A DNA stretch of 64,000 nt from Escherichia phage Bp4, in sequence record NC_024142.2. One strand, 5' to 3'. Shown one piece after another: positions 2,565 to 38,811 of this stretch. The first letter of the stretch is position 1. Each line of letters begins with the position of its first letter. The notes under the pieces are model-generated. The model was not told the DNA's origin. It did no database searches and saw only the letters and a program-made list of their open reading frames with translations. Position numbers and translations under genes: made by a program.

Positions 2565-2733
2565 AGGTTACTCCTTTTGGGAATAGGGTCATCGGAACAT
2601 TACATACTATTTAGTATCATGAACTTTTTCTATATCATGACTAAAGTGTAACTGTATGGTATCGTTTCTTCAAGGGTAACTCACCCCAAGAAAGAATCTT
2701 CTTTAATAGACATAACTTTGTAGCGAGATAAGT

Positions 2734-3423
2734 ATGAGTGAACTAACTAAGCAGCAGATTGTTAATGCCTTACCTGCTAACTTCAAAAACAGTGTGACCC
2801 AGGAGTTGGTAGACACGATCAACAACATAACCCAAGACCAACTGGTTGCTGAGTCTTTCCGTGAAAACTTTATCTCCTACTCTGGTGTAATGAAGGAAGG
2901 TAAGTTCAAGACACAGGACTACATGAATGCAGTTCAGTATGTGACTTATAAACACATGGGCTATTCAAATAAGGAAGCCTACTTCAAGACATTCCCTAAC
3001 CGACAAGCAGAACTTGTTGCACGAGGAACCAGCGAGAAAGATATTAGTGCTTATGTATCTGCATATCACAGAGGTAAGTTAGTTAACCTCATCATGGAAC
3101 AAAGTTTGGTTCCAGTGTGGATTGTGAACCAGGACAATTATCAGAAGGCAATCAATGTTCAGGTTGAACTGATGACTTCAGCAGCAAGTGAGAAGGTAAG
3201 ATGTGATGCAGCTAACTCTATCCTTACTCATTTGGCTAAACCAAAGGACCAGGTAACAAATATCAATCTGGATTTAAGAGAGAACTCTGGGTTAACTGAC
3301 CTCAAGGCAACACTTGCTGCATTAGCTGAACAACAAATCAATGCAATCAATAGTGGTGTACCCACCAAAGAGGTTGCTGGTTCTAAACTAGTACGTGCTG
3401 ATGAGGACATTACAGATGTCTGA
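2734..3423 (+). CDS. hypothetical protein, possibly terminase small subunit (position only)
   Basis: 229-aa ORF immediately upstream of and overlapping the large terminase start. Confidence 0.35.
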   Translation: MSELTKQQIVNALPANFKNSVTQELVDTINNITQDQLVAESFRENFISYSGVMKEGKFKTQDYMNAVQYVTYKHMGYSNKEAYFKTFPNRQAELVARGTSEKDISAYVSAYHRGKLVNLIMEQSLVPVWIVNQDNYQKAINVQVELMTSAASEKVRCDAANSILTHLAKPKDQVTNINLDLRENSGLTDLKATLAALAEQQINAINSGVPTKEVAGSKLVRADEDITDV

Positions 3424-5005
3424 GTTAATTAAACAGGAACTGGATGAATGGCTAGACCAGGTGGATTACTCCCACCTAAACTCTTCCAACTATGTTCCCA
3501 GTCAGTTTGCTCTTACCTTTGCCAACTTTATTAAGTTGGTTAATGGCAAAGAAGGTGAATCCAACAAAACACCCCCAGTTCACTTGAAGATGCTTGATAA
3601 GATGATTAGCCCGAACCAGTATGTAGTTAACCTGTGCTTCCGTGGTGCAGGTAAGACTGCTGTGTTTATGGAATACTTTACTTTGTTCCTGGCAGTGTTT
3701 GGTCACTTACCAAGTCTGGGTAAAGTAGAGGGAATGATTTACGTATCTGACTCAATGGATAACGGTGCTAAGTCTGCACGTAAGAACATTGAGTTTCGTT
3801 ATAAGAATAGTGAGTTCCTACAGCAATGGATACCTGAAGCTACTTTTACGGATAACCTACTGGAGTTCCGTAATGTAGAAGGGCATCGTCTTGGTGTTAA
3901 GCTGTTTGGTGCTAAGACAGGTCTTCGTGGTACGAAGATATATGGTAAGCGTCCAACACTCTGTGTACTAGATGACTTGATTAGTGATGGTGATGCTAAC
4001 TCCAAGACTAGCATGGAAGCTATTAAAGACACCGTTTATAAAGGTGTGAACCATGCTCTTGACCCAACTCGTCGTAAAGTAATCTTCAATGGTACTCCTT
4101 TTAATAAGGAAGACATTATCATTGAAGCAGTTGAGTCTGGTGCATGGGATGTCAACGTATGGCCTGTATGTGAGAAGTTCCCTTGTAGTAAAGAAGAATT
4201 TCAGGGTGCATGGGATGACCGTTTCTCTTACGACTACATTAAAGCCCAATATGACATGGCAGTTAAGACTGGTAAGTTGGCTGGCTTCTATCAGGAACTT
4301 ATGCTCCGTATTAGCTCTGAAGATGAGAGACTGGTTCAGGATAGTGAAATTAGATGGTATAGCAGACAGCAACTATTAAGGATGAAGTCCTGCTACAACT
4401 ATTATATTACAACTGACTTTGCTACATCGGAGAAACAGACCAGTGACTATAGTGTCATATCAGTTTGGGCTTATAGTTCTAATGGAGATTGGTTCTGGGT
4501 TGATGGTGTGGCTAATCGTCAGCTTATGGATAAAAACTTTGATGACCTGTTCCGTCTGGTTCAAGAATACCAACCACAAAACGTTGGTGTCGAAATCACA
4601 GGGCAGCAAGGTGGATTCATTTCGCTCCTTCAGAAAGAAATGATTAACCGTAATGTCTTCTTTAACTTTGCATCTTCTGAAGGTGGTAAGCCGGGTATAC
4701 GTCCTGTAACCTCTAAGCTGTCACGCTTTAACCTGGTAGTTCCATGGTTCAAAGCTGGTAAGATGTACTTCCCGGAAGAGTTGAGAGATTCAACTATTAT
4801 GGGTCTGTTCATGGGCCAGATTAAACTAGCTACCATTAATGGAATCAAAGGTAAGGATGACTGTATTGATACTATCTCCATGCTGGGTTATCTCAATCCT
4901 TGGAAACCACAAGCAGGTATGACTCTGGTGGATAACAAAGGTGACCCAATGTGGGATGATGAAGAAGAAGATAGTGTTAACCCACTTCGTTCATACATTG
5001 TGTGA
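3416..5005 (+). CDS. terL: terminase large subunit
   Basis: Walker A-like CFRGAGKTAV near N-terminus, ~530 aa, position at head of the structural module; ATG at 3416 (MSELIKQ). Confidence 0.85.
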   Translation: MSELIKQELDEWLDQVDYSHLNSSNYVPSQFALTFANFIKLVNGKEGESNKTPPVHLKMLDKMISPNQYVVNLCFRGAGKTAVFMEYFTLFLAVFGHLPSLGKVEGMIYVSDSMDNGAKSARKNIEFRYKNSEFLQQWIPEATFTDNLLEFRNVEGHRLGVKLFGAKTGLRGTKIYGKRPTLCVLDDLISDGDANSKTSMEAIKDTVYKGVNHALDPTRRKVIFNGTPFNKEDIIIEAVESGAWDVNVWPVCEKFPCSKEEFQGAWDDRFSYDYIKAQYDMAVKTGKLAGFYQELMLRISSEDERLVQDSEIRWYSRQQLLRMKSCYNYYITTDFATSEKQTSDYSVISVWAYSSNGDWFWVDGVANRQLMDKNFDDLFRLVQEYQPQNVGVEITGQQGGFISLLQKEMINRNVFFNFASSEGGKPGIRPVTSKLSRFNLVVPWFKAGKMYFPEELRDSTIMGLFMGQIKLATINGIKGKDDCIDTISMLGYLNPWKPQAGMTLVDNKGDPMWDDEEEDSVNPLRSYIV

Positions 5006-24895: not shown

Positions 24896-24955
24896 ACTGG
24901 CTTACTGTAGAGTAAGTTACCTATATACGATATAAGTTTGAACAGGAAACATGCT

Positions 24956-27900
24956 ATGTCAACATTTGACCGTCTGGCAGGTTTCGCAGACAGCATCACT
25001 AATGCTAAGCAAGTCGATGTCTCTACTGCAACCTCTCAGAAGCAAGCTGCACAAGGGCAAAGCCCTTTCCAATTAACCCCAGAGAATGCTTACAATCTCC
25101 AGACTGGACGAGTAGGTAATCTTGGAATCGGTGCATTCGAACCAGGTTCACTTCAGGCAGATTTCACTCAAGCCTCCCCATTAGAAATCATTAATAAGTA
25201 CGGTAATGAGCAAGGTTTACAAATTCTTAATAGCCGAGCTAATGCTGCTGATGTTGTACGTCAGGACTTATCTAAACAACGTACTAACGCAGAAGCATTT
25301 GGCGATACTCTTTCTGGTGTTGGTCTTGGTGTTGCTAATACCCTTGGGGGCATTGCTGCTCTTGGTACAGGCTTGGTCAATGATAATGCCGGGGCATCCA
25401 TTGCTTCCGGTCTTGACTGGTTGAATAAAGGTGTACACAACCTACAGTCTGATGCACTGAATGCTCGTCGTAATGTAGTACAGAACCAGAACGTAATATC
25501 TGCTCAAGAGAATGAGAAACTCTATAAGCAAGATATTGCTAAAGGAGAAAGTGAACTCGTTGCTTCTCTGTCTCGTATTGGACGAGATGCCTATGATTCT
25601 GTTGCTAACACCCTGTCTAATGACATGGCTGCTACAGATGGCCTGGCTGAAGGTGTTGGTTCATTCTTTACTGGCGGTCCACTTATCCGTGGTGTATCTG
25701 CACTTGGTAAAGTAATGGTAGGTGGTGATAAAGCTGTTAAGGGTATTACCTTAGCTGCTGAATTAGGTTATCGTCCTGCACGTATTGCACAGACTGCTGG
25801 TCGTGTTGCTGCACCTGCTATAGCAATTGGTGGTATGGAAGCTGGTGGTGCATACCAACAGACTGCTAATGAAATTATGGAAATGCCATTCAGTGAACTG
25901 GCTGCTAAATCTCCTGTATACCAACAGCATATTAAAGACGGTCTGTCTCCTGAAGAAGCACGTCGCCAGACTGCATCTGAAACAGGTATCACTGCTGCTG
26001 GCTTAACTGCTCCAGTTGCTGCTCTTACTGCTCCACTGGTATCCAAGTTTGAACTTAACCCACTTAAGGTAGGTTCACTGGCTGGTGCTGGTTCTAACAT
26101 GCTGCGTGAGACTGTAGAAGAAGGTATCCAGTCTGGTACAAGTCAGTTTGCACAAAACAAGGCAATTCAGGGCAATGTAGATGCTGAGCGTGATTTGCTT
26201 AAAGGTGTGGGTGAACAAACTGGTCTGGGTGCATTGTATGGCTTCGGTTCTGCTGGAGTTGCTCAAGCTCCTGGTGCAACTGTTAAGGCTGCTGGTGCTG
26301 CCGTTGGTCCTGCTGTACGTACTACCCTGGCTGGTGCTTCTTTGGCTGGTAAGGCACTAGCAAAAGTAGCTTCACCTATTACTAACATCCTGGTTCAACG
26401 TGGGGAAGAAGTTGCTAAGCGTAATGAACAAGCATCCCCCGTATCTGATGCTACGGTTAACGCTGCTGCACAAGAAGCTACTGCTCAGGCAGAACAAGCT
26501 CAAGCAACTGTTCAGGAAGCAGTGGATGCAATGGATATTTCTCCAGAAGAGAAAGCTGCTGCTACCCAGTATGCTGCTGACTTAACTCAGGCAATGAAGT
26601 TTGACCCGGTAGAATTGGAACAAACTAACCCAGCAATCCGTGAAGCTGTTTCTGGTTCCACTAACCGTGTAGAAGCTATTCAGAAGATGGCTGACTTGGT
26701 TAATACTGCCGAAGACCCTAACGTTCAAATGGAAGCTGCAATCCAGATGTATGACAATATCATGTCTATGGATAGCTTCATTAACCGTGACCCGGGTGCT
26801 TTGGCTAATCTGGAACAAGGTTCCCCTGCTGCTGCAATCGTAGACCAATTCTCCGGCCTGATGGCTAACGTACAGAATACCCCTAAAGTACTCCGTGCAT
26901 TTCGTGCCATCCATTCCATGATTCAGGAACAGGCTGAAGCGGGTAAGCTGAAAGCTACTGAAGAAGCTAATCAAGCCCAAGCAAACAACATTGCTATGGC
27001 TGCTGATGTATCTCCAGAAGTGCTGGATGCAGATTCAGTGAACATGGTTCTGAAACATGCAAGTGAAGGTAAGATTACACTGGGGAATCGTCAACGTGCT
27101 GCCCTGCAATCTGCTGCTGCCTTATTACAGGGTGCACGAGAGTTCGACGCTAAAGCAGAAGAACTAGGCTTACGTCCTCAAGATATTGTTAGTAAACAGA
27201 TTAAAACCGATGAGTCTCGTTCTAATGAAGGACAGTACTCTGCGTTGCAACATGCGAAACGCATTCGTTCTGCGTATAACTCTGGTAACTTCGATTTGGC
27301 CTCCGCTTATCTGAGCGATTTTATGAAGTTCGCCCAGCACATGCAGAATAAGGTCGGAGCGTTGAATGAGCATCTGATTTCGGGGAATGCGGATAAGAAT
27401 AAGTCTGTTCATTATCAGGCTCTCTCGCCTTCCCGTGAATGGGTACGTAGTCGTACTGGCCTCGGTGTCAATCCTTACGATACCAAGTCTGTTAAGTTTG
27501 CCCAGCAAGTAGCACTGGAAGCTAAGACCGTAGCTGACATTGCTAACGCACTTGCTACGGCTTACCCGGAGCTTAATGTTTCTCATGTGAAAGTTACCTC
27601 GTTGGATTCACGTCTGAACAAGCCAGCTGCCCAGGTAGTTAAAGAGTTCCGTCAAGGTGGTCTTGATGCCACTCAGTCTCAACAGACTAATGAACCAGTG
27701 AATCAGGTTGATGAAACTCCTGCACTAGTGCAAGAGGACACCACTACTGTACAGCCTAAAGATAAACTAGTGGTAGAAAATAAGACTGCTCCTACTAAAG
27801 AGACTAGTCCAAAAGCAGAAGAAGTCTCTACTACTGAATCTGAAAGAGATGCTTATGTGAAAGAAAATACTATTTCACAGGAAATTCTTAATAAGAATGG

Positions 27901-30900
27901 TGACCGTAGAGAAAGCCCTTGGTTGTTTGCTGATGGTACTGTGGTTGGTTCTAATGGCGACCATATCAGCCTGTCCGACGTATTTGGGCATGATGGTTAT
28001 CGTGATATGTCTCTGGATACTGGTGCTATTCGCTCTACCTTCTATAAAGGTAGTGAGCAACCATTTGTATCTCTGCAACTGTTTGATAATCAGAAACTGA
28101 CTGCTGAACAATTCAATACTGTTCAATCTTTCGTTGAAGCAAACAATGCACTGATTCAGGTTGGTGTAGATACGTCTGGGCGTAATACCAATAATGTTGA
28201 GAAGGAAGAAGTATCACTAGCTCAACTGAAAGCAGACTATACCGTCGGTGGTAAACCTCTATCGGAAATGGAAACAGTGTTCCCTGTTTATAACAATGAC
28301 AAGACACCGAACCAGTTCATTAAATCATTCTCTCTTCCAGAAGAACCTAAGTCTCGTACCATTGGTTCCGAATCTCCTTTGACTGATGTTAAGAAAGCAC
28401 TGTCTTCTGCTGCTCGCTTTGAAGCATTTACTCAAAAAGAAAATAACGCTCTCACAAGTGATGTGATTAAGCGTTACCAGGACTTATTTGAGTTTGGTGA
28501 AACTCTGAAGACTACTCTGTCTGACCGTCTGGCTAAGTTCCTTGCTAACAAGAACGTTGGTAAACGTTTTGCGGAAGGTACTGAGGCTAACCGTTGGGTA
28601 GGTGGTAAGTTACTTAACATCGTAGAGAAAGATGGTGACACCTTTAAGTTCAATGACCAGCTATTAGAAACTGCTGTACTTGCTGGTCTGCAATGGCGAT
28701 TGACTGCTACACAGAATGCTGCTGTTAAAGACATGAAAGACGTAGCTGCTATTACTGGTGTGGAAGCATCTCTGCTACCAGAAGGTATTCTGGCTGACTT
28801 CGAGAATGCTCAGACCCTGGTTGAAGCTACTAACTCACTAGCTCAAAAGATTGAATCCTATTGGGGTTTGAATCGTAATCCTAATGCACCTTTGGGGTAT
28901 ACCAAGGGTATCCCAATGGCAATGGCTACAGAGATTCTGTCTTCCCTTATTGAGATGGGTGAAGTTAAAGAGTCCATGTTAGATGTGTCTGAGATTGACC
29001 CAGAATCTAATAAGACTGTTGGTCTGTATACCATTGAGAAGCTGGATGATAACGATGCCATTAATAAATTCCCTACTGCTATTGAGGAAACTGTCCTTTT
29101 AGAACCAGTAGAGAAATTGTATCTGGGTGATGACATTCCTTCCGTGGCTCAAACTCAGTTACGTAACCCGGCTGTTAAGAATACCCCGGAACAGAAAGCT
29201 GCTCTCAAAGCAGAACAAGCTACTGAGTTTCGTGTACATATGCCGATGGTTAATTTCTATGAAGCATTGGGTCGTGACAACATTCTGGAGTTAATGGGTG
29301 CTGGTGCTCTTAATCCAGAATTGCTGAATGTGAATACTGCTAAGTCTCTGGAAGGTAAAAACCTGTCCGTGTCCATGGCGTATGATTCCTTGTTTGGTGT
29401 AATCAATCAAATTAAGGAACAGGAGAATGGACTGGATACACCTATTCACTATGGCTACAACATGACCCGTGTAGGTCGTATGCAGATGCTTGGTAAGAAC
29501 AACCCACAGTCCAGCAAACTGGTACGTGAAGCAATCTTACCAACCTTCTCTACCATCGACTTGAGTAATGAAAACAGTCAAACGTTCTCTGACTTCCAGT
29601 TAGGTCTGGCTCAGGCATTGGGCATCAAAGTTCATAAAATGTCCCGTGAAGTTATGTCGGATGAGCTGACTAAAGCTCTGGAAGGTAAATTGAAACCTGC
29701 CGTTGATATGATGGTCGAGTTTGATAAGTCTGGTCACTTACCTGCTGATGCAGTGGATATTCTGAAGACTTCCTTGGGGAATGATAAATCATTCGTAGCT
29801 CTTATGGCCCTGATGGAATATGCCCGTTACCTGAATAGTGATGATCGTGCCAACTTTAATACCCCACTGTACGTTGAAGCCGATGGTGTAACCAATGGAC
29901 CAATTAACGCAATGGTATTAATGACTGGTGGTAAGTTTACTTCAGACTGGATTAAGAATACTGCTAAGGGTGGTTTGTTCTTTGGTAAAGCTGGCAAGAC
30001 TATGAACGAACACCATTCGCACGAGGATAGTGTTGACCTGTATGAAGCATCCACTAATAGTCTGCAACAGGCACTGAATGAATTACGTAATAATTACCGT
30101 AACAACGTTCCTGTTACGAATCAGATGAAGCATCTTCAGAAGTTAATGGACCTGTTCATTAAAGACTTCAATCTTAATGAAGATGGTACTCTGGACCTGA
30201 AACGTGGTATCGCTAAAAACCCACTGACCATTACCATCTATGGTTCTGGTGCTCGTGGTATTGCTGGCAAAATGGTAAGTGCAATTACTGATACCATCTA
30301 CGAACGCTTCAGTGACGTTCTACAAGCCCGTGCTGCTGACCCTAGCATTTCCCCAGCTATGGCTATGTTTGGTAAGGAGGCTGCGTCTGAGGCTGATGCT
30401 CAGGCTATGCTGGATACTTTCCTTACTTCTATGGAAGCACTAACTGGTAATGTTCCGGTTATGCGTAAAGGTGAGTTGTCTATTCAGCAGGTAGATGGTG
30501 CTCTGACTGGTAAGTTAGACCCTCAGAAGTTTACTGTATCCGGTAATGCTCTGAAGAACTTACAAGAGAACATGCTTCATCTGTTCGTTGAACCAATGCG
30601 TACTGGTATCCGAAATACCGTGGGTGAAGGTCTGATGTACTCTACTGAGAACTTGCAGAAAGCTACCCAGATTCAATCTCTGGTTCTGCAAGACATGTTC
30701 CAGCAACGTGTTCAGGAGAAACTGGCAGAAAAAGAAAAAGACCCAACATGGAAGAAGGGTGATTTCTTAACACAGAAAGAACTGAATGAAATCCAGGCTT
30801 CATTATCTCCACTGGCTCCAATGATTGAGACTGGTTCACAGACTTTCTACATTGCTGGTAGTGAGAATACTGATGTTGCTAACCAAGTATTGGCTACCAA

Positions 30901-33900
30901 CTTAGATGACCGTATGCGTGTGCCAATGAGCATCTATGCTCCTTCACAGGCAGGTGTAGCAGGTATTCCATTTATGACCATCGGTACAGGTGATGGCATG
31001 ATGATGCAGACCCTTTCTACTATGAAAGGTGCTCCGAAGAATACCCTGAAAATCTTTGATGGTATGAACATTGGTATTAATGACATTACTGATGCAAGCC
31101 GTAAAGCTAATGAGGCTGTATATACTTCCTGGCAGGGTAACCCTATCAAGAATGTTTATGACTCCTTTGCTAAGTTCATGAAGAACGTAGACTTCAGCAA
31201 ACTGTCTGATGAAACCAAACAAGCTATCGCTAAATCTGCACTGGAATACGACCAACGTGAGGGTGCTACTGATGACCTGTTACGTGTTGGTGCTGAACAG
31301 ATTGAACGTAATCTGCGTAACATTGCTCTGGGTGTGGATATTCGTCATAAGGTAATGGACCAGGTACAGGTCACTGTTGACCAGATGGCTGCTGTTGGTG
31401 CTCCTTATGTGAACAACGGTAAAATCTCTCTGGAAGGTCTGACTGTAGACCAGCAAGTAGCTAAGCTGAACGAACTGTTTGATGCTGAATTAAACAAGCG
31501 TCGTGATGCAGTACGTGCTGCTAAAGCAGAACCAGTGAAAGAAGTGCCAGCAATGGAACAGGTCGGTCGTGTACTGAAGTCTGGTGTACGTCTGCTGTCT
31601 AATGCTGCCATTACTAAACTGGCTAAAGAGATGTCCCCTGAACAACAAGCAGTACTGAAAGAAATACAGAAATCTCTTGCTGCTAAAGACTATAAGGTTG
31701 TTTATGGTACGCCTTCTCAACTGGATGCCTATGCTATTGAGAAGAACATTACTCGTCCAGCACCGGAAGATATTGAAGCTGCTGAAGCAGGTAATGCATA
31801 TGGCTGGACTAACTTTGAAGATAAAACCATCTACTTAGTTACCCCTTCCTTAGAGACTCTGGTTCATGAATTGGTACATGCCTCTACTTTTGAATCTGTA
31901 CTAGCTCACTACGAGGGTACTCCTAACGAAGCAGTCCAGAATATTGAAGACCTGATGAACCAGTTCCGTGCTCTTGATGTTAAGAATGAATCTCCGGCAG
32001 TACGTGAAGCATATGCCGATGCACTCAATACCATTAATGGCCACTTGTCCAATGGCTTTATTGAACCAGCAATGGCTAAAGCTGCTGCACTGAATGAGTA
32101 CATGGCTTGGGGTTTAACTAACCGTGAACTTATAAGTAAGCAGAAGAAAACCACTGCACTTAAAACTATGGTTCAGGCTGTATATGAAGCAATCAAACGT
32201 CTGGTATTCGGACGTAAGAAAGCTCCTGCTAATGCAGATGATATGTTCTCTGGCTTACTGTTTAACTCTGCTGTAGTAATGCGTGGGCAGGCTCCTACTG
32301 CTGCTGTAGCCAAAGATACTACCTTGTTCCATAACAAAGCATACGGTGACAATACTCGTCTGGAAGAGCTAGGGAAAACCTTCGATAAGCTGATTACTAA
32401 CTACATTGGTTCAGAACCAGTACAGCAAGTAATTCGTAAAGGTAAGTTCTCTGATGCAGTAGTAAAAGCAACTAAAGTAACTCGTGATGTTCAGGCTCAT
32501 GGCTTCACCATGAATATGCAGGAACAGCGTCTCTTCACTAACATTGTTGCTGCACTAGCTACTGAGGCTGCTATTAACCCTGCTGCTATGGCTCGTGCAC
32601 AGGAATACTACACGCATGTTACTAAGAACCTGACTGTTGAAGCGTTCATGGCTGACCCGGATAGTACTAACCCTGCTGACCGTTACTATGCACAGCAGAA
32701 GTTCGATACCATCATGGGTGCTAATAACATTGAGTTTGATGCACAGGGTCGTTCTTCCTTACTACCTACCTTTGTTGGTCTGGTAATGGTAAGTGAAGAA
32801 GTACGTAAGGTGCTGGCTGATATTTCTGTTATGAAAGCAGATAAAAAATCTGGCAATACTGTTGATGCAATGCTGACTAACATCGGTACTGCTGCAATGG
32901 CTAGTCTGAATGCTCGTGTAGCAGGTGATACTAAAGCCACTAACGTACAGGAAGGTATGGATGCACTGGCTCAGACAATCATGCAGACCAGTCTTAACGC
33001 AGAATCCTTCTATGATTCCGTTGCTACTCCTACCGGTAATGCTATCGACCGTGCTAACCAGTATTTGGTGGACTCTATTGATGCATTGTCTACCCGTGCT
33101 TTAGAAGGTGCTCGTGAAGTTGCAGCTAATACCAAGAATCCATTGGTCAAAGGTGCTGCTCATGCTGCACAACTGGTAGCTGCTATTGCTACAGAGAAGA
33201 ATGGTGCAATCGTAGCCGAAGGTGTTATGGCTGCAATGAACCAGGGTAAAGTATGGCAACCTTTCCATGACCTGGTTAATGACATAATTGGACGTACTAA
33301 GAGCAATGCTTCTGTATATGATTTGATTAAAGCAGTACGAGCACAAGTGCAGGCTGACCGTCAACAGTTCCGTGAACACTTGCCTACCACTATCGCATCC
33401 AAGTTCAGCCGTAAACTGACTAATGATGAGTGGAAAGCAATGCATACCGGTATGGGTAAAACTGACTTAGCTGTTCTGCGTGACACTATGTCTTTGGATG
33501 AAATCCGTGACCTGCTGACTGACCAGAAGAATGTTGACCGTGAGGTTAATAAACTGGAAGCAGATTTGCAGAAACAAGCAGGACGTAACTGGCCCCTGAT
33601 TAACCGTAAATCTAAGCAACTGGCTCAGTATATGATTAACGGTACAGTCGGTAATAACCTGCTGCGTAATGCTACTGCAATTTCTCGTTTACTGGGTGAA
33701 CGTAAGACTACACGTTCTGTTGTAGATGTAGCTCAGCTGGATAAACTGATTACCCTGTATGCACTGGAAGCAATGAGTAAGACTGACCGTGAGGTGTTAT
33801 CTTCACTGGCTCAGACAGAAGTTGAAGGCATGGACTTTGCTACTTCTTACCTGGTTGGTCAGCGTAAAGACGAAATGGCTAAAGCCAAGTCTGATAGCCG

Positions 33901-35668
33901 TGCAACCTTGAACCAGTACAAAGGATACATCCCAACTGAGAACAAACAGGGTGTTAACCTGATTGTTGCTGAAGATAATCAGTTTGCTGATTTGATTGAG
34001 AAATCCTATGTACGTCTTGGTACTTATCAGGGTAGCTCTGCTAACCGGGGTCCAGCACGTAGTTACTACTTTGCACCGGTACAGGCACAGGCTCCGTTCT
34101 CACAAGGTATCCTACAGAACGTTCGAAATACTGCTGGTGGTGTAGACCTTGGTACAGGCTTTACGATGGGAACCATGGTAGCTGGTCGTATTACTGACAA
34201 GCCTTCCGTAGACCGTATCACTAAAGCACTGGCTCGTGGTGAACGTGGCAATGAACCACTGCTGCCTGTATATGATGCTAATGGTAATGTAGTTGCTTAT
34301 GAGCAATCTATTGACCCTAACATGCTGAAGCACATTGAGGGTGAGAATCATCTTGCTCGTGCAATCGGTGTATGGCGTGGTCGTCAGGTGGAAGAAGCTA
34401 AGGCTCAGCGTTTCAACGATATGCTAATTGAGAACCTGCATAGCATGTATGAGAACGACATTAAGATGTCTGCTTCTAATAAGTCCCAGTACGTTAACCT
34501 TCTTGGTTCTAAACTGGACCCAGTAACTGCCGATGCCCTTAAGCTGATGAACAGTGAAACTCGTCAGAAAGCAGAAAGTCTCTTTGGTCCAGGTGAATTG
34601 TGGGTGCGTCGTGACATGCTTAATGATGCTCTGGGTTATCGTGCAGCTTCTGTAGGAGATGCCTGGTCTGGTAATTCTCGTTGGTCACCAGAAACACTGG
34701 ATACCTTCAAGAAAGCTATGTTGGGTGTATTCGGCAACCGTGCCTATAAGTATGTAATGGGTGGTGAGAACCTGGTTCAGAACTTAGTTAAAGAAGCTAA
34801 GACCCTGATTGTAGTTAAGTCAGTAGTTGTACCTGCTGTTAACTTCCTGGCTAACCTTTACCAGATGGTTGCTCGTGGTGTACCTGTTAAGAACATTGCT
34901 AAGAGCATCCCACAAAAAACTGCTGAGATTAACCAGTATCTGAAATCTCGTCTGCGTCAGGTAGATGCAGAAGCAGAATTACGTGCAGCTACTAACCCGA
35001 ACCAGATTCGTAAACTCAAGGCTGAGATTCAGTCCATCTCTGATAGCCATAAACGTTTGAGTATCTGGCCTCTGTTGGAAGCTGGTGAGTTCTCTTCAAT
35101 TGCAGATGCTGGTATTGGCCGTGATGACATCCTGATTACTGAAGGTAAACTCCACGAATACATGGAAAAGCTGGCTGATAAGCTGCCTAAGTCTGTTCGT
35201 AACGCAGGTCGCTATGCACTTATCACTAAGGATACTGCTCTCTTCCAGGGTATTCAGAAGACGGTTGAGTACTCTGACTTTATTGCTAAAGCAATCATCT
35301 ATGATGAACTGACTCAGCGTAAAGGTAAGACTCGTGAAGAAGCACTGGGGCGTGTAACGGAAGAGTTCATTAACTATGACCGTCTGCCTGGTCGATTCCG
35401 TGGGTATATGGAAAGTGTTGGTTTGATGTGGTTCTACAACTTTAAGATTCGTTCTGCAAAAGTTGCAGTGTCCATGATTCGTAATAACCCAGTACATGCT
35501 GCTATGGCTATGTTGGCTCCAACCCCTACCATGTTTGGTAACGTTGGTCTTCCTATTCAGGACAACATCTTTAGTATTGCTGCACAAGGCAATCTTGGTT
35601 ACTCCTTTGGTTTCGGTCAAGGCTTACGTGCCCACAACCTGAACCCTTGGCTCAACCTTACTAACTAA
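24956..35668 (+). CDS. giant virion-encapsidated RNA polymerase (N4 vRNAP-like)
   Basis: Single uninterrupted ~3570-aa ORF in the virion module; size and position are diagnostic of N4-like phages; ATG at 24956 with RBS AGGAAAC. Confidence 0.8.
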   Translation: MSTFDRLAGFADSITNAKQVDVSTATSQKQAAQGQSPFQLTPENAYNLQTGRVGNLGIGAFEPGSLQADFTQASPLEIINKYGNEQGLQILNSRANAADVVRQDLSKQRTNAEAFGDTLSGVGLGVANTLGGIAALGTGLVNDNAGASIASGLDWLNKGVHNLQSDALNARRNVVQNQNVISAQENEKLYKQDIAKGESELVASLSRIGRDAYDSVANTLSNDMAATDGLAEGVGSFFTGGPLIRGVSALGKVMVGGDKAVKGITLAAELGYRPARIAQTAGRVAAPAIAIGGMEAGGAYQQTANEIMEMPFSELAAKSPVYQQHIKDGLSPEEARRQTASETGITAAGLTAPVAALTAPLVSKFELNPLKVGSLAGAGSNMLRETVEEGIQSGTSQFAQNKAIQGNVDAERDLLKGVGEQTGLGALYGFGSAGVAQAPGATVKAAGAAVGPAVRTTLAGASLAGKALAKVASPITNILVQRGEEVAKRNEQASPVSDATVNAAAQEATAQAEQAQATVQEAVDAMDISPEEKAAATQYAADLTQAMKFDPVELEQTNPAIREAVSGSTNRVEAIQKMADLVNTAEDPNVQMEAAIQMYDNIMSMDSFINRDPGALANLEQGSPAAAIVDQFSGLMANVQNTPKVLRAFRAIHSMIQEQAEAGKLKATEEANQAQANNIAMAADVSPEVLDADSVNMVLKHASEGKITLGNRQRAALQSAAALLQGAREFDAKAEELGLRPQDIVSKQIKTDESRSNEGQYSALQHAKRIRSAYNSGNFDLASAYLSDFMKFAQHMQNKVGALNEHLISGNADKNKSVHYQALSPSREWVRSRTGLGVNPYDTKSVKFAQQVALEAKTVADIANALATAYPELNVSHVKVTSLDSRLNKPAAQVVKEFRQGGLDATQSQQTNEPVNQVDETPALVQEDTTTVQPKDKLVVENKTAPTKETSPKAEEVSTTESERDAYVKENTISQEILNKNGDRRESPWLFADGTVVGSNGDHISLSDVFGHDGYRDMSLDTGAIRSTFYKGSEQPFVSLQLFDNQKLTAEQFNTVQSFVEANNALIQVGVDTSGRNTNNVEKEEVSLAQLKADYTVGGKPLSEMETVFPVYNNDKTPNQFIKSFSLPEEPKSRTIGSESPLTDVKKALSSAARFEAFTQKENNALTSDVIKRYQDLFEFGETLKTTLSDRLAKFLANKNVGKRFAEGTEANRWVGGKLLNIVEKDGDTFKFNDQLLETAVLAGLQWRLTATQNAAVKDMKDVAAITGVEASLLPEGILADFENAQTLVEATNSLAQKIESYWGLNRNPNAPLGYTKGIPMAMATEILSSLIEMGEVKESMLDVSEIDPESNKTVGLYTIEKLDDNDAINKFPTAIEETVLLEPVEKLYLGDDIPSVAQTQLRNPAVKNTPEQKAALKAEQATEFRVHMPMVNFYEALGRDNILELMGAGALNPELLNVNTAKSLEGKNLSVSMAYDSLFGVINQIKEQENGLDTPIHYGYNMTRVGRMQMLGKNNPQSSKLVREAILPTFSTIDLSNENSQTFSDFQLGLAQALGIKVHKMSREVMSDELTKALEGKLKPAVDMMVEFDKSGHLPADAVDILKTSLGNDKSFVALMALMEYARYLNSDDRANFNTPLYVEADGVTNGPINAMVLMTGGKFTSDWIKNTAKGGLFFGKAGKTMNEHHSHEDSVDLYEASTNSLQQALNELRNNYRNNVPVTNQMKHLQKLMDLFIKDFNLNEDGTLDLKRGIAKNPLTITIYGSGARGIAGKMVSAITDTIYERFSDVLQARAADPSISPAMAMFGKEAASEADAQAMLDTFLTSMEALTGNVPVMRKGELSIQQVDGALTGKLDPQKFTVSGNALKNLQENMLHLFVEPMRTGIRNTVGEGLMYSTENLQKATQIQSLVLQDMFQQRVQEKLAEKEKDPTWKKGDFLTQKELNEIQASLSPLAPMIETGSQTFYIAGSENTDVANQVLATNLDDRMRVPMSIYAPSQAGVAGIPFMTIGTGDGMMMQTLSTMKGAPKNTLKIFDGMNIGINDITDASRKANEAVYTSWQGNPIKNVYDSFAKFMKNVDFSKLSDETKQAIAKSALEYDQREGATDDLLRVGAEQIERNLRNIALGVDIRHKVMDQVQVTVDQMAAVGAPYVNNGKISLEGLTVDQQVAKLNELFDAELNKRRDAVRAAKAEPVKEVPAMEQVGRVLKSGVRLLSNAAITKLAKEMSPEQQAVLKEIQKSLAAKDYKVVYGTPSQLDAYAIEKNITRPAPEDIEAAEAGNAYGWTNFEDKTIYLVTPSLETLVHELVHASTFESVLAHYEGTPNEAVQNIEDLMNQFRALDVKNESPAVREAYADALNTINGHLSNGFIEPAMAKAAALNEYMAWGLTNRELISKQKKTTALKTMVQAVYEAIKRLVFGRKKAPANADDMFSGLLFNSAVVMRGQAPTAAVAKDTTLFHNKAYGDNTRLEELGKTFDKLITNYIGSEPVQQVIRKGKFSDAVVKATKVTRDVQAHGFTMNMQEQRLFTNIVAALATEAAINPAAMARAQEYYTHVTKNLTVEAFMADPDSTNPADRYYAQQKFDTIMGANNIEFDAQGRSSLLPTFVGLVMVSEEVRKVLADISVMKADKKSGNTVDAMLTNIGTAAMASLNARVAGDTKATNVQEGMDALAQTIMQTSLNAESFYDSVATPTGNAIDRANQYLVDSIDALSTRALEGAREVAANTKNPLVKGAAHAAQLVAAIATEKNGAIVAEGVMAAMNQGKVWQPFHDLVNDIIGRTKSNASVYDLIKAVRAQVQADRQQFREHLPTTIASKFSRKLTNDEWKAMHTGMGKTDLAVLRDTMSLDEIRDLLTDQKNVDREVNKLEADLQKQAGRNWPLINRKSKQLAQYMINGTVGNNLLRNATAISRLLGERKTTRSVVDVAQLDKLITLYALEAMSKTDREVLSSLAQTEVEGMDFATSYLVGQRKDEMAKAKSDSRATLNQYKGYIPTENKQGVNLIVAEDNQFADLIEKSYVRLGTYQGSSANRGPARSYYFAPVQAQAPFSQGILQNVRNTAGGVDLGTGFTMGTMVAGRITDKPSVDRITKALARGERGNEPLLPVYDANGNVVAYEQSIDPNMLKHIEGENHLARAIGVWRGRQVEEAKAQRFNDMLIENLHSMYENDIKMSASNKSQYVNLLGSKLDPVTADALKLMNSETRQKAESLFGPGELWVRRDMLNDALGYRAASVGDAWSGNSRWSPETLDTFKKAMLGVFGNRAYKYVMGGENLVQNLVKEAKTLIVVKSVVVPAVNFLANLYQMVARGVPVKNIAKSIPQKTAEINQYLKSRLRQVDAEAELRAATNPNQIRKLKAEIQSISDSHKRLSIWPLLEAGEFSSIADAGIGRDDILITEGKLHEYMEKLADKLPKSVRNAGRYALITKDTALFQGIQKTVEYSDFIAKAIIYDELTQRKGKTREEALGRVTEEFINYDRLPGRFRGYMESVGLMWFYNFKIRSAKVAVSMIRNNPVHAAMAMLAPTPTMFGNVGLPIQDNIFSIAAQGNLGYSFGFGQGLRAHNLNPWLNLTN

Positions 35669-35675
35669 ATGAAAA

Positions 35676-35705
35676 AGCCCCTCTAATGAGGGGCTTTTAT
35701 TTTTA
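35676..35705. terminator. bidirectional intrinsic terminator
   Basis: 8-bp stem AGCCCCTC/GAGGGGCT, loop TAAT, A-run upstream and TTTTATTTTT downstream; between convergent genes. Confidence 0.75.
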
Positions 35706-36751: not shown

Positions 36752-36783
36752 TCAAATAAAAAAGTCCCTCCGAAGAGGGACTT
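36752..36783 (-). terminator. intrinsic terminator ending the tRNA-region transcript
   Basis: Minus strand stem GTCCCTC-TTCG-GAGGGAC followed by TTTTTTATTTG. Confidence 0.7.
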
Positions 36784-37009
36784 AGTAGCTTTAACGCAGC
36801 TAACGAGGCTAGGCCAGTTAACTATTACCACCGGTGCTTGTACCAGCAAACAGGATTGATAGTCCGATAATAGTTAACTGTAATTGAGCATTATAGTCTG
36901 CTCATACTCACACCGTTAGGTATGTTTTCAATAATTAGAGTGCCGGACTGTCTCACCGGCATTGTCTTTAGAGTGCAATGCAATCAGGACTATGTTCTCT
37001 ATTAATAAG

Positions 37010-37083
37010 TACCCACTACTGGATTTGAACCAGTGACCTTCCGATTATTAGTCGGTTGCTTTCCCCGTCTAAGCTAAGTGGGC
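37010..37083 (-). tRNA. tRNA, canonical cloverleaf; anticodon loop CUAAUAA, isotype uncertain
   Basis: Hand fold: acceptor GCCCACU/AGUGGGU, D-arm GCUU/AAGC, anticodon stem with one mismatch, T-arm ACUGG-UUCAAAU-CCAGU; no encoded CCA. Confidence 0.5.
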
Positions 37084-37457
37084 ATAAATGAGTGAGTCAT
37101 GCCAGACTTTAACTGGCTCCTTCTTCGCAATCCTTACATACCCCTACATAATTATTGCGTTAAGCTTATATTGTTTAAGTTTAAGTGAAGGCGTTCTTGC
37201 TGACTCATAATAGGGTGGGCGTTTGACGAATGACTAGTTCGTTACTACCCGTTTGCCATAAGTACCTGGCGACTTTGGTTTGAGGCGGGAGTCCGAGTCC
37301 TGTACAGCCTTACCGTTCACACATTGGCAGCGTATCTAGAATAGCACTTCCGGCAACTGGATTTAACTGTTACACCCCAAATCTGGTAGGGGCGTCCAGA
37401 AGTCTCATCTGGTACTTACGCCGTCGTATGGTTACGACTTACCCCCATAATCTTTCT

Positions 37458-37529
37458 AATTCAAAGTAGCACTGCTCCATGTTTGGCCTTTGAACTCCGG
37501 GATGGATTAGTGCAATGCTACTTTGAATT
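37458..37529. repeat. 14-bp perfect inverted repeat with 44-nt spacer
   Basis: AATTCAAAGTAGCA at 37458-37471 and TGCTACTTTGAATT at 37516-37529, abutting a tRNA-like 3' end. Confidence 0.6.
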
Positions 37530-37615
37530 GGTTACCAGTGAGGGATTCGAACCCCCGGTTGGAGTCTATAGCTTACCGCAGCAGCTCTCCAATCTAGCGG
37601 TGTCACACTTAGTCC
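37529..37615 (-). tRNA. tRNA-like element (T-arm, 3' acceptor strand and encoded CCA; no canonical 5' half found by eye)
   Basis: GGGGG-UUCGAAU-CCCUC then ACUGGUA-A-CCA; upstream region does not fold into D or anticodon arms. Confidence 0.3.
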
Positions 37616-37653
37616 AAACTTGAACATATCAAGCTATCTCGTGCAACTGATAA

Positions 37654-37719
37654 TTGGTTCCGGCGTCTGGACTCGAACCAGAACACTTATGCCGTGCACG
37701 ACACTAGTACCTACACCGG
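37654..37719 (-). tRNA. tRNA-like minihelix (7-bp acceptor, T-arm, CCA; about 10 nt too short for a cloverleaf)
   Basis: Acceptor UCCGGUG/CGCCGGA, T-arm UCUGG-UUCGAGU-CCAGA, A-CCA; internal 29 nt have no stems. Confidence 0.3.
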
Positions 37720-37795
37720 AATTAATTGCCAGGGATTCCACCTGGTCCATCTGTTTTTATAGTCACTCAGATATCGTCTGGACTGTAGGCATGGG

Positions 37796-37871
37796 TGGGA
37801 ATCGAACCCACAAACCATTCAGCACTGTAGCCTCACGCTCTACCTATTTGAGCTATCACACACCATTGATT
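37796..37871 (-). tRNA. tRNA-like element (canonical D-arm and T-arm; acceptor and anticodon stems not pairable)
   Basis: D-arm UAGCUCAAAUAGGUAGAGC and T-arm GUGGG-UUCGAUU-CCCAC present. Confidence 0.3.
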
Positions 37872-38156
37872 AACTCCCCGTTTCTAATACACGGACGAGG
37901 ACACTCCATGGTCGTTTGATAATCAGGACGACTCACTCCCGACTGACGCTTGGCTTATTAGGCTGCCATCAGAACAACATCATCGTTTGCATTTATGTTA
38001 TTGGTTCGTTTCTAAAAAACCGCATAATCGCTTACGAAAACTATCAAAGAGTACACTAAGCACAGGTAGCTACCCTGCCGTCTTCTCCACCTACACCGGC
38101 TACAGTGTAAACCTCCGCACGTTAGCTTAATGTACTCATTGATAGGATGTCAGTAG

Positions 38157-38226
38157 GTCGGGGGCTGGATTCGAACCAGCGAGAGAAGTAGCGACCATCT
38201 GCACATGCCTACGTGCTACCTCGACC
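38157..38226 (-). tRNA. tRNA-like element (acceptor with one mismatch, D-arm, T-arm; anticodon region 2-3 nt short)
   Basis: GUCGAGG/CCCCGAC, D-arm GCAC-GUAGGCAU-GUGC, T-arm GCUGG-UUCGAAU-CCAGC. Confidence 0.3.
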
Positions 38227-38401
38227 ATTATAATAGGAGGGAGGGGACGAGTCCTCCCTTTATACCCTATATTGCATGTAAGACCTAACAATTCGATGCT
38301 GTAGGTAGCTATGCTATCCGACATTTAACCCAGCCATATAGGGCTTATGTGATTAAAATGCTCAACATTGAGCGGTTAGTTTGATAAGGGATCTGAAGCC
38401 T

Positions 38402-38429
38402 TATCCCAAAGATACTAACCTTTGGGATA
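38402..38429. other. 10-bp stem hairpin in non-coding region
   Basis: TATCCCAAAG-ATACTAAC-CTTTGGGATA. Confidence 0.5.
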
Positions 38430-38610
38430 TAGCCTATCATTCAGAAATGGCCCCTATAGGGAGAGGCCATTGATTAACCCGAATGTTGCTTTACATTTTC
38501 TGTGATAACCCATTCTTAAAATAGTTTACCTGACGGATGGGGGCCACCCCTAGCGTCAGTGCCATACGGCAAAGATTAAGTTAAGAAAGGTTATGATAGG
38601 AGTTCCTATC

Positions 38611-38811
38611 TCAAAGGATTCTAACAGAACCCTTCACGATATTAACTACTCTTTTTAATGCTTCTACTTCACCCTCTCTATACCAAGCATATGGTACTAA
38701 GATTTTGCAGCCTTCTGATTCAATGTGAAATGCTTTCTTTCCTTCAACGGGTTCTCCACCCATGAAAGAACTAACCTTTCCATTGAGCCAGTGAATAGTA
38801 AATTTGTTCAT
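38611..38811 (-). CDS. hypothetical small protein
   Basis: 66-aa ORF (MNKFTIHWLNGK…) with upstream GAGA RBS-like element. Confidence 0.45.
   Translation of the reverse strand: MNKFTIHWLNGKVSSFMGGEPVEGKKAFHIESEGCKILVPYAWYREGEVEALKRVVNIVKGSVRIL

Follow-up and report, generated by a model that had tools for sequence, protein, structure and literature searches.

Transfer-messenger RNA (tmRNA) and SmpB are universal in bacteria, and the tag that tmRNA encodes determines what becomes of every protein that a stalled ribosome releases. Besides the one-piece tmRNA (ssrA, RF00023), alpha-proteobacteria, cyanobacteria and some beta-proteobacteria have a two-piece permuted form (RF01849-51, RF04321), the precedent for tRNA-like and messenger parts that reside on separate, base-paired chains. 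Some phages, among them mycobacteriophages and huge phages, carry complete tmRNA genes, often among tRNA genes. Phage RNAs may also base-pair with host non-coding RNA: the prophage antagonists of small RNAs (anti-sRNAs) AgvB and AsxR of enterohaemorrhagic Escherichia coli reportedly sponge Hfq-dependent sRNAs by mimicking their mRNA targets. To our knowledge, no prophage anti-sRNA targets tmRNA or bears a replacement coding module, and we know of no RNA for which a trans-acting template hijack of trans-translation has been described. Here we analyse a non-coding interval, positions 36785–38610, in a 64,000-nucleotide (nt) stretch of DNA from Escherichia phage Bp4 (NC_024142.2; hereafter the window). 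Its sequence indicates that the centrepiece of the interval is a widespread tmRNA-derived RNA with an arm directed against host tmRNA. The cluster of tRNA-like sequences recorded there by an initial annotation is real, and the interval is more interesting than was proposed.

The most widespread and most unusual feature of the interval is a 172-nt RNA at 38045–37874, which is tmRNA-derived and lacks a tRNA-like domain (this and the other RNA features of the window described below lie on the minus strand). It was absent from the initial annotation, several of whose 'long hairpins' flank or belong to it. A permissive Rfam scan gave a sub-threshold match to tmRNA_permuted (RF04321) at 38061–37958, with 33.4 bits against a threshold of 47; of the other tmRNA models, RF00023 reached 15.5 bits, on the T arm of the tRNA-like element 4 (see below) only, and RF01850 15 bits against 84, with similar results in other phages. 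The RNA misses the Rfam gathering scores of all tmRNA families, and the element is annotated by neither ARAGORN, Rfam, PGAP nor the GenBank records; full-text literature searches found no description of it.

The 3′ half of the RNA is a complete messenger module, comprising a resume context, a ten-codon tag frame, stops in a helix-5 analogue and two covariation-supported pseudoknots. The resume-codon context is provided by a 22-nt linker (37991–38012; GAAACGAACCAAUAACAUAAAU), in which, by comparison with the Rfam tmRNA consensus and E. coli ssrA, the A at −4 corresponds to host A86. Together with the 5′ domain the linker also forms a pseudoknot-1-like fold, to which it contributes the 3′ strands. 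The resulting context, AUAAAU-GCAAACGA (AUAAAU-GCA AAC GA), is near-identical to the tmRNA consensus. The tag frame (37955–37990) reads GCA AAC GAU GAU GUU GUU CUG AUG GCA GCC UAA UAA and specifies ANDDVVLMAA followed by two stops, compared with ANDENYALAA for the E. coli tag. The double stop UAAUAA (37960–37955) ends the phage tag as it does that of E. coli tmRNA.

The frame is kept across the family. In 43 of 43 distinct nucleotide versions a stop (UAA, UAG or UGA) is codon 11, and all four alanine codons (GCC, GCG, GCU and GCA) occur at codon 10. Entropy at codon positions 1, 2 and 3 is 0.76, 0.56 and 1.18, respectively, third positions varying most, and the other reading frames across the tag have erratic lengths. 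The 19 peptide variants, all of ten codons, conform to A-N-[DE]-x-x-x-x-x-[AV]-A, save for one singleton ending in P. Among the predicted tags are AANDDVVLMAA of N4-like and Jersey-like phages, AANDDLMMVAA of P1 and a further version, AANDEQFLAVA. This pattern of substitution indicates that the tag frame is under peptide-level selection. An AUG-initiated frame overlapping the tag was also considered and rejected: its length varies from 2 to more than 11 codons, and no Shine–Dalgarno sequence was seen on reading the sequences.

The stop codons lie in the loop of the helix-5 analogue (37943–37972), a CUGA-UGGC/GCCA-(AGCG)-UCAG hairpin whose outer helix is 98.5% paired, with double compensatory changes in 4 of 4 pairs. 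Pseudoknot 2 (37911–37942) consists of the stem UCGGGA/UCCUGA and a loop GUCG that pairs with downstream CGAC; its helices are 98% and 91% paired, and the loop pairing occurs in the versions CCGA/UCGG, CCAG/CUGG, CCAA/UUGG and GUCG/CGAC. Pseudoknot 3 (37876–37909) is a CCUCGU/ACGGGG hairpin with the conserved loop CCGUGUAUUAGAA, from which CCGU pairs with upstream AUGG (GCAG/CUGU in phage P1); a covarying pair between upstream CGCA-N and loop N-UGUG is C:G, G:C or U:A. The pseudoknot-inclusive structure was written by hand and its pairs were counted over 34 non-redundant sequences. In all, 88.5% of cells are paired, against 34–48% in slid controls, and double changes are found in 19 of 36 pairs (102 cells), which none of 500 shuffles reach; RNAalifold independently recovers the nested parts.

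Upstream of this module, the first 33–39 nt form a 5′ arm (38013–38045 in the window; GAUAGUUUUCGUAAGCGAUUAUGCGGUUUUUUA) that is predicted to be antisense to host tmRNA. With E. coli ssrA as the reference target, this putative docking domain is complementary to tmRNA nt 68–106 and covers the 3′ strand of host pseudoknot 1, U85/A86, the resume codon and tag codons 1–6. When the first 33–39 nt alone are submitted to RNAduplex, almost all of the arm is paired; the window arm pairs in three colinear blocks, on host nt 97–106, 85–91 and 68–79. Block 1 brings UAGUUUUCGU(C) together with host (G)ACGAAAACUA, which are tag codons 3–6, and UAGUUUUCGU against host 97–106 is the longest complement in most copies. 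In block 2, GCGACU (GCGAUUA in the window) faces host (U)AGUCGC, from U85/A86 through G90 C91 of the resume codon, and in block 3 UUUGCGG-N-UUUUUA faces host UAAAAAGCCGCAAA, the 3′ strand of pseudoknot 1 and the linker. The distance from the last paired base to the resume codon is 22 nt in the window, in P1 and in class-2 copies; in the host, U68 to G90 spans 21 nt.

The duplex of the window arm with its target has a predicted energy of −32.9 kcal/mol by RNAduplex; dinucleotide shuffles have −20.1 (z −5.3), and none of 100 attains the value of the arm. The host interval nt 67–108 was chosen for nearly all 34 representatives, and 32 of the 33 short 5′ domains gave −27 to −40 kcal/mol (z −2.0 to −5.7), with at most 4 of 100 dinucleotide shuffles as good; the exception is L161 (z −1.5, 9 of 100 shuffles; L-numbers are labels of the compared loci, L001 being P1 (AF234172), L002 Serratia phage phiMAM1 and L185 Pollock). 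The median energy is −34.5 kcal/mol with the host target and −15.9 with the homologous region of the phage RNA itself, so the phage copy of the template has diverged away from its own arm. We further applied a strict statistic that counts only colinear Watson–Crick helices, 5 bp or longer, and allows host loops of up to 8 nt. The resulting chains comprise 27–29 bases in class-2 copies and 22 in P1, with a control maximum of 23 among 12,792 40-nt windows from both strands of this phage; the window copy forms 27 Watson–Crick and 2 G·U pairs with host tmRNA. Full-length RNAduplex, permissive Smith–Waterman and G·U-tolerant chain scores did not discriminate, random and GC-rich windows scoring equally high, and BLAST recovers only the 10-nt block of the complementarity; we relied on Watson–Crick-only chains and composition-matched shuffles. 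The host target is conserved across Enterobacterales, with one common variant, U69 in E. cloacae-type tmRNA, and the E. cloacae phage MII_001 has an A matching U69 (UUUUAAG versus UUUUUAG), a single case suggestive of a compensatory change between host and phage. Taken at the level of sequence, the complementarity to host tmRNA is extended, specific and conserved across the family, as would be expected of an antisense RNA.

No tRNA-like domain (acceptor stem with G3:U70, T arm and 3′ CCA) is contiguous with the tmRNA-like RNA, and ARAGORN called no tmRNA in any locus examined. A predicted sigma-70 promoter sets the start at (A)GAUAG, the first bases of the element, in L123/L150, L173, L207 and L373, and a terminator directly follows pseudoknot 3 in L185 and L016; because of these promoter and terminator positions, a flanking tRNA-like domain is ruled out. 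In P1, no T arm is present within the approximately 300 nt between the element and the downstream tRNA genes (Asn and Thr, with more tRNAs in some P1-like contigs). Nor is the layout permuted, as the RNA begins at the pseudoknot-1 equivalent; Klebsiella phage KP13-27 and L016 have a T loop inside the upstream helix H_A (see below), but in the order of an ordinary tRNA. Several ways of completing a tmRNA in cis or in trans were tried and abandoned. Acceptor strands for a one-piece or permuted tmRNA were sought near the element in all lineages; the candidates (38205 GGCAUG with CAUGCC; GGACGGU or GGAUGAU with GUCGUCC in L126) are unconserved and lack G3:U70, pairing of the messenger RNA with other modules of the island amounts to three chance matches of 8–9 nt, and the bases that flank the RNA favour local hairpins over a long-range equivalent of helix 2.

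The phage RNA shares with one-piece tmRNA the AUA at −6 to −4 followed by GCAAACGA, a ten-codon tag with an AND start and a small hydrophobic end, UAAUAA stops in the loop of a helix-5-like hairpin, and pseudoknots both before and after the tag. In contrast to one-piece tmRNA, it has no acceptor stem, D loop, helix 2 or T arm, has only two downstream pseudoknots, carries the 33–39-nt antisense arm, and is missed by ARAGORN and at the Rfam threshold. The complete tmRNAs of other phages are likewise of phage-borne tmRNA type, but they are full and are found by standard tools, whereas here the tRNA-like half is missing. The best Rfam match is to the two-piece RF04321, sub-threshold as it is. In two-piece tmRNAs, however, one gene gives both pieces, the coding piece has a 5′ acceptor strand and a D loop, and helices 1 and 2 pair, whereas the partner of the phage RNA would be an intact host tmRNA, paired at its messenger region. 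The element would thus act much as the coding piece does in a two-piece tmRNA, yet it belongs to no tmRNA family, as it lacks an acceptor stem and a T arm and falls short of the Rfam thresholds. With AgvB and AsxR it would share base-pairing of a phage RNA with a host non-coding RNA.

The element is widely distributed. A 251-nt query spanning it matches 258 GenBank phage records from unrelated groups by BLAST, nearly all unannotated beneath the match, and the 5′ arm matches 226; in IMG/VR, more than 240 loci were found among the matches listed in two scans. Megablast located it in 137 of 5,426 complete E. coli genomes, never annotated by PGAP. Carriers include P1, lambdoid phages, Jersey-like siphophages, N4-like phages, Klebsiella phages, Grimontviridae, Ackermannviridae, and Cronobacter and Enterobacter phages. 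The P1 copy lies in the ban-operon leader, between the dicF-like region and tRNA-Asn, and the copy in lambdoid HK633 lies between PR′/tR′ and the holin gene. A terminator-like hairpin belonging to the annotated 'dicF-like region' of the C1-controlled ban leader immediately precedes the P1 element (2393–2653 of L001), so two candidate regulatory RNAs stand in tandem upstream of the P1 tRNA genes. Some prophage anti-sRNAs reportedly map to late regions and Stx transcripts, a setting similar to that of the lambdoid copies.

How might such an RNA act? Peptide-level selection on the tag frame implies that the frame is decoded. Reading it from GCA, with no start codon, would take trans-translation, hence a charged tRNA-like domain and SmpB, and since many carriers encode no tRNA-like domain, that of the host is the only universal candidate. 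We favour, at a little short of an even chance, a mechanism in which the phage RNA binds host tmRNA, covers the tag template of the host and presents one of its own. During lytic growth, the 172-nt RNA would be excised from a precursor. RNase P would cut the flanking tRNA-like elements, the nearest of which, element 4, begins 9 nt beyond the RNA, on the 5′ side of their acceptor stems, and the long helices described below would be cut by RNase III or a similar enzyme; the acceptor stems and the 18–21-bp helices have the anatomy of such substrates. The 5′ arm would then anneal to the single-stranded template region of host tmRNA and invade pseudoknot 1, which would hide the host resume codon and tag and place the phage resume codon 22 nt from the junction (21 nt in the host). 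Alanyl-tmRNA/SmpB would rescue stalled ribosomes as usual while adding (A)ANDDVVLMAA rather than (A)ANDENYALAA. In the free RNA, the arm and linker could instead fold into the pseudoknot-1-like structure, which would compete with docking and may protect the arm. More broadly, and tentatively, since we would sooner expect the opposite, unrelated phages of Enterobacterales (P1, lambdoid prophages of Shiga toxin-producing E. coli (STEC), Jersey-like phages, Drexler-type siphophages, Ackermannviridae and N4-like phages) may reprogram ribosome rescue with a template-only RNA that invades host tmRNA at pseudoknot 1, the resume codon and the start of the tag, and replaces its tag while relying on the tRNA-like domain, SmpB and alanylation of the host.

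Several points weigh against this proposal. The whole case is computational, with RNA accumulation, pairing with tmRNA and decoding all predicted, and we know of no precedent for a non-covalently tethered template being loaded with one-piece host tmRNA. The phage tags still resemble ClpXP-type degrons, such as are recognized in the ssrA tag, which makes a benefit of the swap hard to see. Two pairs in the window's own copy are G·U, and by raw duplex energy GC-rich windows of the island are as good (−35.8 versus a mean of −26, standard deviation 4.7). Only one compensatory change between host and phage was found, host tmRNA being nearly invariant across the host range. The arm can also fold within the RNA into the pseudoknot-1-like structure (95% pairing in helix 2, where one double change is compensated), which would partly explain its conservation without the host, and part of block 3 (GCGG-U) may be inherited from the 5′ strand of an ancestral pseudoknot 1. 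Finally, the processing role given to the tRNA-like elements is one that we only infer.

The RNA might instead be an anti-tmRNA inhibitor only, its arm sequestering tmRNA or triggering its cleavage and shutting down tagging, and its 3′ part serving as an untranslated scaffold that stabilizes or mimics. Such a function would suit the extended, host-specific antisense arm and the presence of the element in lytic or late transcripts (the P1 ban leader by the dicF-like RNA, and PR′–tR′ to holin in lambdoid phages). We nevertheless regard it as unlikely, as a scaffold would not keep a ten-codon frame with all three stops exactly at codon 11, nor would third-position synonymous drift, a hydrophobic [AV]-A end and an A(−4) resume context be expected of it; furthermore, blocking the host template without a replacement would trap ribosomes on peptidyl-tmRNA.

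The docking proposal assigns a processing role to the tRNA-like elements, which were the subject of the initial annotation. The motif GGTTCRANTCC has five exact matches in the window, at 37021, 37543, 37669, 37798 and 38167, all on the minus strand and spanning 37021–38177, as had been claimed; five further matches elsewhere in the window have one mismatch each. At up to one mismatch, shuffles contain a mean of 4.5 matches, and the ten observed are reached in 0 of 100. Only one of the five sequences is a full cloverleaf, again as described. This is a tRNA-Ile with anticodon AAU and no encoded CCA (37010–37083), called by ARAGORN and accepted by Rfam (RF00005) with 64.8 bits against a threshold of 29, the only tRNA in the region at the gathering threshold. 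Its unusual anticodon loop, CUAAUAA, is genuine, and a relative's record annotates tRNA-Ile(aat). Position 34 is A, and the anticodon stem-loop AACCGACUAAUAAUCGG equals that of a CAU tRNA in the Jersey-like phage L123 except for C34→A. By ARAGORN, A34 anticodons also occur in the 'Cys(aca)' tRNA-like elements here and in phiMAM1, and in the phiMAM1 tRNA-Pro(agg).

The other four sequences keep an acceptor stem and T arm without a working anticodon arm, two of them with an encoded ACCA, and in this respect too the first description stands: ARAGORN calls three of the five as tRNAs and Rfam one, the ARAGORN calls of elements 4 and 5 requiring extra nucleotides or mispaired anticodon stems. Element 5 (38155–38226) has the acceptor GGUCGAG/CCCGACC, a D arm, a T arm and a near-normal anticodon arm (CGC), without G3:U70 or CCA. 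ARAGORN reports it as 'tRNA-Ala(cgc)', Rfam gives only 26.3 bits at 38156–38226 (tRNA-Sec model, threshold 47), and it is 96–100% conserved in relatives, one of which, St11Ph5, has tRNA-Ala annotated. Element 4 (37785–37863), 'Cys(aca)' by ARAGORN, has an acceptor stem, a canonical D arm, a T arm, to which its Rfam match is confined, and a defective anticodon arm with 3 of 5 stem positions paired; in the relative L093, position 33 is C, so that U33 is lost. Its acceptor 5′ strand is GGUGUGU here and GGCAUGU in L093, and both pair with CAUGCC.

Element 3 (37655–37720) is 66 nt long, about 10 nt shorter than a tRNA, as noted previously, and consists of the acceptor UCCGGUG/CGCCGGA, one central hairpin, a T arm and an ACCA encoded at 37658–37655. 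Its minimum free energy (MFE) fold contains the acceptor, one hairpin and the T arm (z −2.6) and no anticodon arm; the hairpin stem covaries (GUCG/CGGC versus CGUU/AACG) while the ends stay constant. Records of relatives label it 'tRNA-Undet'; its acceptor start (UCC...GGA) and T arm presumably recall E. coli tRNA-Asn. Element 2 (37529–37652, approximately 124 nt) has a 7-bp acceptor UAUCAGU/ACUGGUA, a large invariant core, a T arm and ACCA at 37532–37529, and lacks a 7-nt anticodon loop on a 5-bp stem. Across 8 variants, about 60 core nt are invariant, and compensatory changes occur in the acceptor stem, T stem and internal hairpin: pair 3-70 is U·G, U-A or C-G, pairs 4-69 and 5-68 change together from C-G/A-U to U-A/G-C, and GGGGG/CCCUC in the T stem is replaced by GGAGG/CCUUC. 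Neither element 2 nor element 3 has a match in the permissive Rfam scan at E ≤ 10, and both are confined to N4-like phages. G3:U70 is absent from every acceptor stem examined in the island.

These tRNA-like elements recur in dozens of independently sequenced N4-like phages, annotated as tRNA-OTHER, Undet or Pseudo. Because they are conserved in so many phages, with compensatory changes in acceptor and T stems, they are not genes damaged by assembly errors, one of the explanations offered initially. Rather, selection on the four tRNA-derived elements has preserved only the acceptor stem, the T arm and, in some, ACCA. T4 species 1 and 2 (RNA C and D) and mascRNA are known examples of non-decoding RNAs whose tRNA-like acceptor/T-arm end is cut by RNase P; the T4 RNAs are co-transcribed with tRNAs, and the island elements resemble them in anatomy. 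The elements are conserved relics that probably serve as processing signals, and most simply processing punctuation, as they retain exactly what RNase P, CCA-related enzymes and end protection need. This view offers a provisional interpretation of the 'tRNA-Undet/OTHER/Pseudo' calls that recur in N4-like genomes. The same narrow selection on acceptor stem, T arm and ACCA, together with the several different copies per genome, would also fit decoys or sponges for host factors that bind these parts (toxins or defence nucleases acting on tRNA 3′ ends, the CCA-adding enzyme or EF-Tu). We consider decoys improbable, since no target can be named from sequence and the elements lie precisely at the borders between modules, where processing signals would be expected.

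Other tRNA-like domains accompany the element in other phages. Lambdoid, Jersey-like and Klebsiella phages have a distinct one downstream of it (L123, 2285–2400; L124, 2275–2375; L125, 2285–2440), with the acceptor UGUGGUG/CACCACA, often followed by N-CCA, a D-like hairpin GCGCA-GGCUGA-UGCGC and a T-like hairpin whose 9-nt loop AGAUCAGUA is complementary to the D loop (AUCAG/CUGAU). At the same position, L173 has a canonical D arm and T arm. In Salmonella phage pSal-SNUABM-01 (L126, 2190–2350), two non-canonical tRNA-like RNAs with encoded CCA, GGAUGAU...GUCGUCC-CACCA and GCGGGUA...UGCCCGC-UCCA, lie directly 3′ of the element; ARAGORN calls neither. In phiMAM1, about 1.4 kb of dense non-coding sequence (2660–4000) follows the element and includes a tandem GAGAACGUU repeat (approximately 3490–3525) and an RNA of about 195 nt (approximately 3596–3790) with an acceptor stem, T arm and CCA (ACCCGG...GGAGGUUCGAAUCCUC-ACUCGGGUG-CCA).

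Could one of these RNAs be the acceptor piece of a self-contained, two-piece phage tmRNA? The candidates are the acceptor/T-arm/CCA RNAs at 37720–37655 and 37652–37529 and the UGUGGUG...CACCACA-N-CCA domain of lambdoid and Jersey-like phages. Acceptor-type elements mostly share a transcription unit with the messenger RNA, element 3 is arranged like a free-standing tRNA-like domain (acceptor, D-loop-like GG, one capped helix, T arm and ACCA), and the lambdoid/Jersey-like domain combines a compensated stem with D/T-loop complementarity. We nonetheless think this quite unlikely. G3:U70 is in no acceptor stem, the messenger RNA has no complementarity to any acceptor candidate, and partners differ by lineage and are absent from the P1 leader (from the element to normal tRNAs), Pollock (L185), L016 and L132; elements 2 and 3 occur only in N4-like phages, whereas the messenger RNA extends beyond them. 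That the island is mere debris, decaying tRNA genes and a captured, dying ssrA fragment without function (close to the 'degenerate tRNAs' initially suggested), would explain why four elements fail tRNA models and why content is mosaic and variable between relatives, but it is very hard to believe in view of the strong purifying selection and compensatory stem evolution, the invariant 60-nt core of element 2 and a tag frame conserved across phage families that otherwise share little.

The long hairpins and inverted repeats noted earlier are also real. They comprise repeats of 21 bp (38041–38061/38125–38145), 18 bp (37458–37475/37512–37529) and a perfect 13 bp (36815–36827/36868–36880). The first forms the long helix H_A (38041–38146; arms 38145–38125 and 38061–38041), which has a variable distal part and ends exactly at the start of the tmRNA-like RNA; its MFE is −42.9 kcal/mol (z −4.4), reached by 0 of 200 shuffles. 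It is possible that H_A is an RNase III site or a stacking helix. Long helices, near-perfect and conserved in sequence (AGGUAAGAGC...GCUCUUUCC), enclose the element in most lineages, and H_A is the window version of them. These bracketing helices (L123–L125, L134, L137 and many more) are of the form N5-6-AGGUAAGAGCAYUG...CARUGCUCUUUCC-N′5-6 or of a AAUGAGAGC...GCUUUCAUU flavour, and they conserve sequence as well as structure in unrelated phages. Their distal parts are hypervariable, with a T-loop hairpin inside in KP13-27, L016, L134 and L235. Such helices might serve as sites of RNase III cleavage or protein binding, or as recombination joints. The second long helix of the window (37458–37529) has the 18-bp arms.

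Further modules complete the island. Module M1 (37722–37784) contains two hairpins, GUCCAGACGAUAUCUG...CAGAUGGAC and CCAGGUGGAAUCCCUGG, and is conserved in 12 loci, including KP13-27 and Jersey-like phages, without an Rfam match. Blocks B4 and B5 (37090–37450) are structured and non-coding, 90–100% conserved in relatives and likewise without an Rfam match; part of B4 (37270–37450) is shared with Enterobacter and Pectobacterium phages of about 150 kb. A 10-nt identity of B4 to the 3′ end of 16S rRNA is at chance level (about 2–3 expected by rough arithmetic) and was dropped. GOLLD, ROOL, YrlA and other Rfam families gave no relevant matches. Module order and content differ between close relatives, with conserved hairpin modules shuffled among related phages, so that the island amounts to a patchwork of small RNA cassettes.

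The region is 99.8% identical to that of Escherichia phage PD38 and 99% to that of ECBP1, both N4-like phages of the G7C group (Gamaleyavirus). In this N4-like coliphage of the G7C/ECBP1 type, we read positions 36785–38610 as an operon of small stable RNAs on the minus strand, probably running from a promoter at about 38645 to a terminator at 36783–36762. The candidate sigma-70 promoter at the upstream edge (38618–38645; TTAATA, a 16-nt spacer and TG-TAGAAT) comes from a consensus scan only, and the intrinsic terminator that closes the island (36762–36783; a 9-bp stem with a UUUUUUAUUU tail) is predicted by a terminator scan. The interval was correctly described as non-coding: the open reading frame (ORF) list and a PHROG comparison yielded no credible protein gene in 36785–38610, the sole PHROG match being a 62-amino-acid (aa) ORF that overlaps a tRNA-like element and hits the tiny phrog_37481 (a 40-residue family). 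In some GenBank records the homologous stretch is filled with up to nine mini-ORFs, as in Bas96 with nine 'hypothetical proteins'; small ORFs cover conserved non-coding DNA at 38136–38324 (minus strand) in the window and at 430–1926 in Bas96 (L251). Such ORFs look like annotation artefacts over conserved RNA genes.

A 3,576-aa plus-strand ORF (24938–35668), equal in size to the virion RNA polymerase of N4-type phages, runs towards the minus-strand block with the island, where minus-strand coding begins at 35703 and continues onward. The GC-skew turn near 36 kb coincides with this coding-strand switch. A replication origin in the interval, suggested initially, was discarded because the skew turn follows the strand switch and no supporting feature was found. 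The initial interpretation thus holds for a non-coding region with one tRNA and four tRNA-derived elements, and fails for assembly damage and for the origin.

In hundreds of phage genomes, among them those of phages used in therapy and biocontrol (Kuttervirus and N4-like), and in STEC prophages, the tmRNA-derived element goes unannotated, and it is often covered by spurious small ORFs. Its proposed function can be tested in standard systems such as P1, lambda-like prophages and the BASEL phages, for which the predicted tags and pairing partners are explicit. If true, it would represent a new viral takeover of host quality control, in which a phage RNA docks on tmRNA with its own tag, and would show that one genome can supply the tRNA-like function and another the template.

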